Positions 2,503 through 4,395 of a stretch of DNA of 6,087 nt are shown here, piece after piece. Both the position numbers and the translations under genes were made by a program. The DNA lies in sequence record NC_001330.1; one strand, 5' to 3'. Under the pieces are notes generated by a model that saw only the letters and a program-made list of their open reading frames with translations, was not told the origin of the DNA and ran no database searches. The stretch's first letter is position 1. Every line of letters starts with the position of its first letter. This stretch comes from Escherichia phage alpha3.

Positions 2503-2955
2503 ATGAATATTGTTTCTGATGTTAATTACGCTACTTCCGTTGCTGCTCTTCGCATGTTGCAGGCTAGTGCTGTTTTGGATGTTACTGAGGAAGATTTCGA
2601 TTTTCTGACTGGTGATAAGATTTGGATTGCTACCGACCGTAACCGTGCGCGTCGTTGTGTTGAGGCTTGTGTTTATGGAACGCTGGACTTTGTTGGATAT
2701 CCTCGCTTTCCTGCTCCTGTTGAGTTTATTGCTGCCGTCATTGCTTATTATGTTCATCCCGTCAATGTACAAACAGCATGCCTCGTTATGGAAGGCGCGG
2801 AGTTTAGCGAAAACATTATCAATGGCGTCGAGCGCCCGGTTAACGCCGCTGAGCTCTTCGCGTACACCCTGCGTATTAAAGCAGGATTCAAAGAAACTGT
2901 AATGGATGCCGAGGAAAATGCTCGTCAGAAATTACGCGCAAATGGACTGAAGTGA
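2503..2955 (+). CDS. D: External scaffolding protein D, 150 aa
   Basis: Near-identity over long stretches with phiX174 D (ASAVLD.TE.DFDFLT..K.WIATDR.RARRCVEACVYGTLDFVGYPRFPAPVEFIAAVIAYYVHPVN). AAGGAG (2491-2496) with a 6-nt spacer. The track ORF begins at an upstream TTG 2473. Confidence 0.95.
   Translation: MNIVSDVNYATSVAALRMLQASAVLDVTEEDFDFLTGDKIWIATDRNRARRCVEACVYGTLDFVGYPRFPAPVEFIAAVIAYYVHPVNVQTACLVMEGAEFSENIINGVERPVNAAELFAYTLRIKAGFKETVMDAEENARQKLRANGLK
2675..2902 (+). CDS. E: Lysis protein E (MraY inhibitor), 75 aa, overprinted in the +1 frame of D
   Basis: MERWTLLDILAFLLLLSLLLPSLLIMFIPS is almost identical to the phiX174 E transmembrane domain (MVRWTLWDTLAFLLLLSLLLPSLLIMFIPS), including the conserved proline. 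GAGG (2662-2665) 9 nt upstream. The track extends it to GTG 2612. Confidence 0.9.
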   Translation: MERWTLLDILAFLLLLSLLLPSLLIMFIPSMYKQHASLWKARSLAKTLSMASSARLTPLSSSRTPCVLKQDSKKL

Positions 2956-3035: not shown

Positions 3036-3054
3036 GGGCCCTTCGGGGCCTTTT
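3036..3054 (+). terminator. J-F intergenic hairpin with UUCG tetraloop plus T-run (TJ-like terminator / RNA stability element)
   Basis: GGCCC (3037-3041), TTCG loop, GGGCC (3046-3050), with a flanking G-U pair 3036/3051, then TTTT (3051-3054). Confidence 0.5.
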
Positions 3055-3066
3055 AAGGAAATTCAA

Positions 3067-4362
3067 ATGTCTAATGTACAAACTTCCGCTGAACGTGAAA
3101 TTGTTGACCTCTCTCATCTTGCCTTTGACTGTGGCATGCTTGGTCGTCTGAAGACTGTTTCATGGACTCCTGTTATCGCTGGCGATTCCTTTGAGCTTGA
3201 TGCTGTTGGTGCTTTGCGTCTTTCCCCTCTGCGTCGTGGTTTAGCTATTGATTCTAAGGTTGATTTTTTCACCTTCTACATTCCGCATCGTCATGTTTAT
3301 GGCGACCAGTGGATTCAGTTTATGCGTGATGGTGTTAATGCTCAGCCTCTGCCTTCTGTTACTTGCAATCGCTATCCGGACCATGCTGGTTATGTAGGTA
3401 CTATTGTTCCTGCAAATAACCGTATTCCTAAGTTTTTGCATCAGAGCTATCTGAACATTTACAATAACTATTTCCGTGCCCCGTGGATGCCTGAGCGTAC
3501 CGAGGCCAACCCGTCTAATCTTAATGAGGATGATGCTCGTTATCGCTTCCGTTGCTGCCACCTTAAAAATATTTGGTCTGCTCCGCTGCCTCCGGAAACC
3601 AAATTGGCTGAAGAAATGGGTATTGAAAGCAATTCCATTGATATTATGGGTTTGCAAGCCGCTTATGCGCAGCTTCACACTGAGCAGGAGCGTACTTACT
3701 TTATGCAGCGTTACCGTGATGTTATCTCCAGCTTTGGCGGTTCAACCTCCTATGATGCCGATAACCGACCGTTGCTTGTTATGCACACCGACTTCTGGGC
3801 TTCCGGTTACGACGTTGACGGTACCGACCAATCTTCCCTTGGACAATTCTCTGGTCGAGTCCAGCAGACGTTTAAACACTCAGTGCCGCGATTCTTCGTG
3901 CCTGAGCATGGTGTCATGATGACTTTGGCTCTGATTCGCTTCCCGCCTATCAGTCCGTTGGAGCACCATTATCTTGCTGGTAAGTCTCAGTTAACCTATA
4001 CCGACCTTGCTGGCGACCCGGCTCTGATTGGTAACTTGCCTCCTCGCGAGATTAGTTATCGAGATCTGTTCCGTGATGGTCGTTCTGGTATTAAGATTAA
4101 AGTTGCCGAGTCTATTTGGTATCGTACTCATCCTGATTACGTTAACTTTAAGTATCATGATTTGCATGGATTCCCGTTCCTTGATGATGCGCCTGGTACA
4201 TCTACTGGTGATAATCTTCAGGAAGCTATCCTTGTTCGTCATCAGGACTATGATGCTTGCTTCCAGTCTCAGCAGTTGCTACAGTGGAACAAACAGGCTC
4301 GCTATAACGTTAGTGTTTATCGCCATATGCCTACTGTACGTGATTCCATTATGACCTCTTAA
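3067..4362 (+). CDS. F: Major capsid protein F, 431 aa
   Basis: Extensive similarity to phiX174 F (MSN.QT.AER...DLSHL.F..G..GRL.T...TPVIAGDSFE.DAVGALRLSPLRRGLAIDS.VD.FTFY.PHRHVYG...QLLQWN...RDSIMTS). AAGGA (3055-3059) with a 7-nt spacer. The upstream in-frame ATG 3034 used by the track lies inside the hairpin and is not the start. Confidence 0.95.
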   Translation: MSNVQTSAEREIVDLSHLAFDCGMLGRLKTVSWTPVIAGDSFELDAVGALRLSPLRRGLAIDSKVDFFTFYIPHRHVYGDQWIQFMRDGVNAQPLPSVTCNRYPDHAGYVGTIVPANNRIPKFLHQSYLNIYNNYFRAPWMPERTEANPSNLNEDDARYRFRCCHLKNIWSAPLPPETKLAEEMGIESNSIDIMGLQAAYAQLHTEQERTYFMQRYRDVISSFGGSTSYDADNRPLLVMHTDFWASGYDVDGTDQSSLGQFSGRVQQTFKHSVPRFFVPEHGVMMTLALIRFPPISPLEHHYLAGKSQLTYTDLAGDPALIGNLPPREISYRDLFRDGRSGIKIKVAESIWYRTHPDYVNFKYHDLHGFPFLDDAPGTSTGDNLQEAILVRHQDYDACFQSQQLLQWNKQARYNVSVYRHMPTVRDSIMTS

Positions 4363-4367
4363 TTCAT

Positions 4368-4383
4368 GGGCCTTCGGGCCTTT
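4368..4383 (+). terminator. F-G intergenic hairpin with UUCG tetraloop plus T-run (TF-like)
   Basis: GGCC (4369-4372), TTCG loop, GGCC (4377-4380), then TTT. Near-duplicate of the J-F module. Confidence 0.45.
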
Positions 4384-4395
4384 AAGGATTTATCT

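Follow-up and report, generated by a model that had tools for sequence, protein, structure and literature searches.

Gene E of coliphage alpha3 very probably encodes a single-gene lysis protein, or 'protein antibiotic', of the phiX174 E family, with start signals of its own, a helix that would act on MraY and a selected tail that would be held by SlyD. Residues 35-67 of this tail are clearly conserved, and in alpha3-like as in phiX174-like phages they are subject to purifying selection; residues 68-75 are not.

Gene E within gene D

The window analysed here, a stretch of 6,087 nt, is the complete alpha3 genome. A megablast search against phage records returned a full-length match of 99.9% identity, DQ085810.2, followed by other alpha3-like phages (St-1, Lilleven, phiK, NC3, WA13, ID21 and others) at 83-92%. 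At the equivalent coordinates DQ085810.2 is annotated with gene D at 2503-2955 and gene E, gpE 'cell lysis protein', at 2675-2902, and the D/E DNA is base-for-base the same in the NC_001330.1 stretch, in DQ085810.2 and in a 6087-nt IMG/VR copy. The gpE of alpha3 in that record (AAZ38963.1) is the same gene, the protein being 100% identical with no difference within E. The public annotation already records the gene, its 75-aa length and what it does, so none of these is new. The arrangement of the region, with all features on the plus strand, is as follows.

2503..2955, +: gene D, external scaffolding protein, 150 aa, overprinted by E (Pfam PF02925 at 254.9 bits; annotation)
2662..2665, +: GAGG Shine-Dalgarno for E, inside D codons, 9 nt upstream of the ATG
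2675..2902, +: gene E, lysis protein, 75 codons plus TAA, translation MERWTLLDILAFLLLLSLLLPSLLIMFIPSMYKQHASLWKARSLAKTLSMASSARLTPLSSSRTPCVLKQDSKKL (PF04517; DQ085810.2 annotation; PDB matches)
2675..2776, +: E residues 1-34, short periplasmic N-terminus and transmembrane helix, the probable MraY-binding part
2735-2737, +: Pro21 codon, ccg (from the sequence)
2777..2875, +: E residues 35-67, basic cytoplasmic tail, the putative SlyD-binding and stabilising segment (PF04517; wobble suppression)
2876..2899, +: E residues 68-75 (LKQDSKKL), the sole truly divergent part (phiX174 alignment; wobble rate)
2900..2902, +: TAA stop of E, across the D codons GTA-ATG (Val-Met), 16 codons ahead of the phiX174-equivalent stop
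2948..2950, +: next E-frame stop, TGA, 5 nt before the D end and at the same position as the phiX174 E stop

The sequence-only reading had recognised 2675-2902 as lysis gene E overlapping D, and the DQ085810.2 annotation, PF04517, the PDB matches and the +1 frame all bear this out. The E start lies 172 nt into D, which places E in the +1 frame, with the third position of each D codon serving as the second position of an E codon. A layout of this kind, with E inside D in the +1 frame under its own ribosome-binding site, is common to 21 relatives; the GAGG and the E ATG, at the same spacing, are invariant in all 21 Bullavirinae compared, and phiX174 E is likewise a +1 overprint on D with the same ribosome-binding site and ATG. 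In WA13-like phages, G4 and phiX174 the D protein has 152 aa; in alpha3, St-1, phiK and Lilleven it has 150, the gene lacking two codons near its N-terminal end, and the E offset is consequently 172 rather than 178 nt, with the frame unchanged. The Lilleven record (MK629527.1) annotates D without the overlapping E, J, B and K, and yet an intact 75-aa E, ending KKP, is found at 1917-2144 in the +1 frame of D; the record is an example of automated annotation that misses overprinted genes.

The open frame itself was rejected as evidence for E, in that the frame stays open for at least 75 codons in 18% of the versions of D reshuffled synonymously. It is homology that makes E real far beyond chance. 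With the Pfam model PF04517, whose cut-off is 25 bits, alpha3 E scores 86.1 bits (E = 1.5e-24) over positions 1-40, the whole length of the model, and among PDB chains E is matched by 8G01_B, the ID21 E protein (residues 2-74, E = 1.9e-26), and by 8G02_B, the phiX174 E protein (E = 3.7e-25). Its identity to the E proteins solved on MraY is 67-72%. By every sequence criterion tested, alpha3 E belongs fully to the phiX174 E family.

A longer product is conceivable, as the listing of open reading frames gives 2612-2902, a 96-aa frame that starts at GTG and is in the same frame as E. This frame is hardly credible as the true product and was rejected: all 21 relatives keep the ATG at 2675 and the GAGG that lies 9 nt before it, every curated annotation begins E at this ATG, and the solved E chains match the 75-aa form from its residue 2 onwards.

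Several observations concern the genome outside D and E. The NC_001330.1 stretch appears to be the older, 6087-nt version of the alpha3 sequence. Against the resequenced DQ085810.2, which has 6089 nt, it shows six differences, four substitutions and two indels of 1 nt (positions 192, 335, 338, 2449, 3544 and 4378), none of them in D or E. By frame arithmetic, the difference at 2449 falls in gene C and is synonymous (GAC to GAT), and that at 3544 changes a codon of coat protein F from CGC to GGC. A short GC-rich hairpin, GGGCCCTTCGGGGCC with TTTT after it, is present in both the J-F (3036-3056) and the F-G (about 4365-4385) intergenic space, and one of the indel differences falls within the F-G hairpin. 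The J-F hairpin was not flagged by a simple terminator scan (the F-G site is outside the region scanned), and Rfam returned no family match. The long H-A intergenic region, 1-758, is absent from phiX174 and G4 and holds several small open reading frames, for example 206-433 (75 aa) and 523-699 (58 aa).

The transmembrane helix and the probable host partners of E

The transmembrane domain is phiX174-like and retains the proline of the LLPSL motif, as the sequence-only reading had noted: residues 1-30 are identical to those of phiX174 E at 27 of 30 positions, Pro21 is present, and the leucine-rich N-terminal helix sequence LAFLLLLSLLLPSLLIMFIP is the same in both phages. Across 19 E proteins, 21 of the first 29 residues are invariant. 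An AF2 model, made from an alignment of 19 sequences, has a single long helix at residues 6-54, with pLDDT 79-92 for the helix in residues 1-34; in this monomer the tail is at pLDDT 43-61 and the mean is 65. The model is consistent with a tail that becomes ordered only on a partner, and proves nothing. A Foldseek search of the PDB with the AF2 model of alpha3 E gave no match.

The phiX174 E protein is reported to be a membrane protein whose N-terminal helix inhibits MraY, with Pro21 essential and the mraY mutation F288L conferring resistance (PMC5039524). Cryo-EM of the 'YES' complex, which unites E. coli MraY with E and SlyD, shows E in the active site of MraY (PMC12506998). SlyD is described as binding the nascent soluble domain of phiX174 E (PMC10688784) and as required for the stability of E (PMC4825663). 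The PDB entry 8G01 is the YES complex formed by MraY, the E protein of ID21 and SlyD (PMC10914600). A short E is thus directly known to assemble with MraY and SlyD, ID21 E being a 76-aa protein from an Alphatrevirus.

From these homologues we infer the MraY target, the SlyD binding and the membrane topology of alpha3 E. In the proposed mechanism, E would be translated from its own GAGG and ATG embedded in the D message, and residues 1 to about 34 would insert as an N-out/C-in transmembrane helix, kinked at Pro21. In E. coli MraY this helix would bind in the groove beside TM9 and block lipid I synthesis, so that the growing cell would burst at septation, while the basic cytoplasmic tail (35-67) would be captured by the host chaperone SlyD, stabilising E. 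The tail segment 35-67 would, in this mechanism, be a functional sequence kept by selection and not a by-product of D, and only the last 8 residues, together with the 16 codons lost to the earlier stop, would be dispensable. Lysis through inhibition of MraY, a trait of the family that goes with resistance through mraY F288L or MraY overproduction, is likely for alpha3 E, judging from its 67-72% identity to the MraY-bound proteins.

ID21 E resembles alpha3 E in genus and in its short form (76 versus 75 aa), with 54 of 75 residues identical (72%) in a gapless match over 2-74, and the two share an SSSRxPCVL motif and a basic C-terminus. It differs from alpha3 E in having His3 (Epos-type), Leu30 and Gln45, and its stop lies one codon later and is formed from other D codons. 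ID21 E co-purifies with SlyD in 8G01; alpha3 E would be expected to bind SlyD as well. The Epos mutants of phiX174 E that bypass SlyD carry R3H and L19F (PMC4825663). Since alpha3 E keeps both Arg3 and Leu19, the residues altered in these mutants, it is predicted to be SlyD-dependent. A 2024 study (PMC11126076, Fig. 8 legend) cloned the alpha3 E gene and recorded lysis curves in hosts lacking slyD or dnaJ, and the one result stated in the text of that source is that ID52 E lyses slyD knockouts. With ID52 E claimed to lyse without slyD, dependence on SlyD is not universal in the E family.

Both Epos residues also occur naturally. His3 is found in WA13, ID21, G4, ID8, ID11, FL76, ID204, WA6, WA2, PJNS002 and SECphi17, Arg3 being retained in alpha3 (codon at 2681-2683), and Phe19 is found in G4, PJNS002 and SECphi17. 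The last two of these, a Salmonella phage (PJNS002, PQ479935.1) and an Escherichia phage (SECphi17, LT960607.1), hold intact E-frame open reading frames in D, of 91 and 95 aa, that lack Pro21 and are unannotated in the records; they read LLLSLFLLLSLTTFI where phiX174 and alpha3 read LLLSLLLPSLLIMFI. To judge from the proteins and the geometry of the frames, in which the third D base is the second E base, a D-synonymous Ala wobble change would give this Pro21-to-Leu replacement. Although Pro21 is reported to be essential in phiX174 E, PJNS002, which is without it, forms plaques (PMC12328618).

Length and homology of the tail

At 75 aa, alpha3 E is indeed shorter than the 91-aa phiX174 E, as had been claimed from the sequence, and the difference in size is due to an earlier stop, the TAA at 2900-2902. 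This stop lies 16 codons ahead of the ancestral stop position, and residues 76-91 of phiX174 E have no counterpart in alpha3. Read-through of the TAA would yield a protein of 91 aa. In phiX174, NC37, FL76 and ID204 the E stop lies 5 nt ahead of the D stop.

The early stop is shared by the relatives of alpha3. E is 75 aa, with TAA at codon 76, in alpha3, St-1, phiK and Lilleven, and 76 aa, with TGA or TAA at codon 77 from the D codons CTG-AGC, in NC3, WA13, WA45, ID21, ID32, NC28, NC35, ID62 and NC29. All 13 Alphatrevirus E proteins examined are therefore of 75 or 76 aa, which is the normal state of the whole genus and no peculiarity of the alpha3 genome. Elsewhere in the subfamily E measures 91 aa (phiX174, NC37, FL76, ID204), 96 aa (G4, ID11), 103 aa (ID52, NC6, WA6) or 105 aa (ID8, WA2).

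Beyond the transmembrane domain, the sequence-only reading had described the remainder of the protein as divergent, with a tail different from that of phiX174. This description fails for residues 31-67, of which 22 of 37 are identical to phiX174 E without gaps (W39, K40, K46, M50, R55, L56, P58, L59, S62, R63, P65, C66 and V67 among those shared in the tail), and it stands for residues 68-75, where one of eight is identical. The Pfam model PF04517, 'Microvirus lysis protein (E), C terminus', covers residues 35-74 of alpha3 E end to end, and a MAFFT alignment of 22 E sequences (21 distinct phages, alpha3 having been entered twice, as the stretch and as DQ085810.2) has no gap before position 76. 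Residues 35-75 carry a net charge of about +7. The homology of alpha3 E extends over residues 1-72, and its tail, on these alignments, is homologous to that of phiX174 but shorter.

An alignment with the E proteins of G4 and alpha3 had been proposed as a check. The alpha3 comparison is circular, as alpha3 E is the same protein. The G4-like proteins (G4, 96 aa; ID52, 103 aa; ID8, 105 aa) are like alpha3 E in gene position and in a near-identical transmembrane domain (24-28 of 30 residues), but they are longer and extend past the end of D, and their tails are identical to that of alpha3 at only 12-15 of 37 positions over residues 31-67, with R55, R63, P65 and C66 lost.

Tests for selection on the tail in three lineages

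Because the third position of a D codon is the second position of an E codon, each D-synonymous wobble change replaces an E residue. Fitch parsimony steps were counted at D third positions, using only columns in which the D residue is invariant and its codon degenerate, on a neighbour-joining tree built from D itself, and sites under E were compared with D-only sequence by the Mann-Whitney test. The results, in steps per site, were as follows.

15 alpha3-clade sequences: D-only 1.43 (5') and 1.20 (3'); E1-34 0.45 (p = 0.0002); E35-67 0.56 (p = 0.003); E68-75 1.50
Alpha3 clade plus two phiX174-type sequences: D-only about 2.0; E1-34 0.58; E35-67 0.72 (p = 0.0004); E68-75 1.50
11 G4-like genomes: D-only 1.46; E1-34 0.69 (p = 0.0004); E35-67 1.57 (p = 0.66); E68-75 2.25

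In the alpha3 clade a permutation test with two-fold and four-fold sites as separate strata gave p = 0.004 for E35-67, a result that, like the alpha3-clade rates above, is to be read as coming from 27 sites in 15 related genomes with a tree from the same gene. The wobble base is invariant in 15 of 15 alpha3-clade sequences at the four-fold D codons under S37, A41, S52, R55, L56, P58, S61, R63, P65 and C66; in the G4-like phages eight of these ten vary, those under L56 and P58 being the exceptions. Avoidance of stop codons is not the cause of this invariance, since five of the ten codons (GGC, CCG, GCC, GCG and ACC) are incapable of making an E-frame stop. Pairwise, the wobble differences between WA13 and phiX174 are suppressed in the E tail (3/29 versus 18/46, p = 0.008), and the comparison of alpha3 with phiX174 for the tail alone is not significant (7/26 versus 20/45, p = 0.2); the tail signal arises from the tree-based count over 15-17 genomes. 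A scan of viral contigs with alpha3 D recovered mostly copies of the same reference genomes and three near-identical metagenome contigs.

It had also been claimed from the sequence that only the transmembrane domain is needed, leaving the tail free to drift under the constraint of the D frame. On such an account the whole tail would be a neutral read-out of D that changes with D wobble, and some of the data agree with it: E68-75 evolves at the neutral rate, its wobble rate in the alpha3 clade being equal to that of D-only sequence; in the 11 G4-like phages E35-67 accumulates 1.57 steps per site against 1.46 for D-only sequence, so that selection on this segment is not detectable there, unlike in alpha3; and the length of E ranges from 75 to 105 aa across the subfamily. 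For the tail as a whole the account is nonetheless improbable. With or without phiX174, the alpha3-like phages have 0.56-0.72 steps per site in E35-67 as against 1.2-2.1 (p = 0.003 to 0.0002), ten four-fold D codons are invariant in 15 alpha3-clade genomes while most vary in the G4-like phages, and Pfam models the C-terminal segment of E as a conserved family domain. The claim of free drift thus holds for E68-75 and for the G4-like tails, and is contradicted for E35-67 in alpha3-like and phiX174-like phages, where wobble is suppressed almost as strongly as in the transmembrane domain.

The pattern in E35-67 could also come about without selection on E, through a recombination tract or some other signal that overlaps it. 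The low wobble diversity would then reflect a feature peculiar to alpha3-like and phiX174-like genomes, such as a recent tract of this kind, an RNA structure or codon-level selection on the highly conserved core of D, and to this the near invariance of the D protein over the stretch, the horizontal transfer among these phages in literature cited in PMC3324380, the small sample and the use of a tree built from D lend some weight. Against it, the G4-like phages, whose D protein is just as conserved, vary freely in the same D codons, which argues against a D-level constraint; the suppressed stretch runs from the E start codon to a point short of the E stop; and the suppression is also seen between genera, in the comparison of WA13 with phiX174. 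Rfam and promoter/terminator scans of the D/E region revealed nothing to explain the constraint, with no Rfam match and no convincing terminator. We regard such a cause outside E as unlikely, and favour selection on the E tail itself.

The variable tail positions 35, 38, 42 and 45 were also considered as a sign of helical periodicity; p was 0.04 for a range chosen afterwards and 0.11-0.18 for other ranges, and no claim is made.

The difference between lineages permits a tentative extension. Conservation of E35-67 in Alphatrevirus and Sinsheimervirus and its neutrality in Gequatrovirus might mean that alpha3- and phiX174-type E proteins depend on a SlyD-binding tail from which the G4-type has escaped, in which case the 75-aa alpha3 E would be a minimal SlyD-dependent form with residue 67 as its functional end. 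The lineage-specific constraint is in keeping with the lysis of slyD knockouts that has been claimed in print for E of the G4-like ID52.

As a discovery alpha3 E carries little weight, the gene being annotated and a near-identical short E having been solved with its target; the measured lineage-specific constraint on the E tail is one small increment. The view that only the transmembrane domain matters and the tail drifts fails for alpha3-like and phiX174-like phages, and it is the geometry of the overlap with D that makes this measurable. The natural 75- and 76-aa forms suggest that everything past about residue 67 of E is dispensable, which may be of use in engineering E for the production of bacterial ghosts or as a scaffold for MraY inhibitors.
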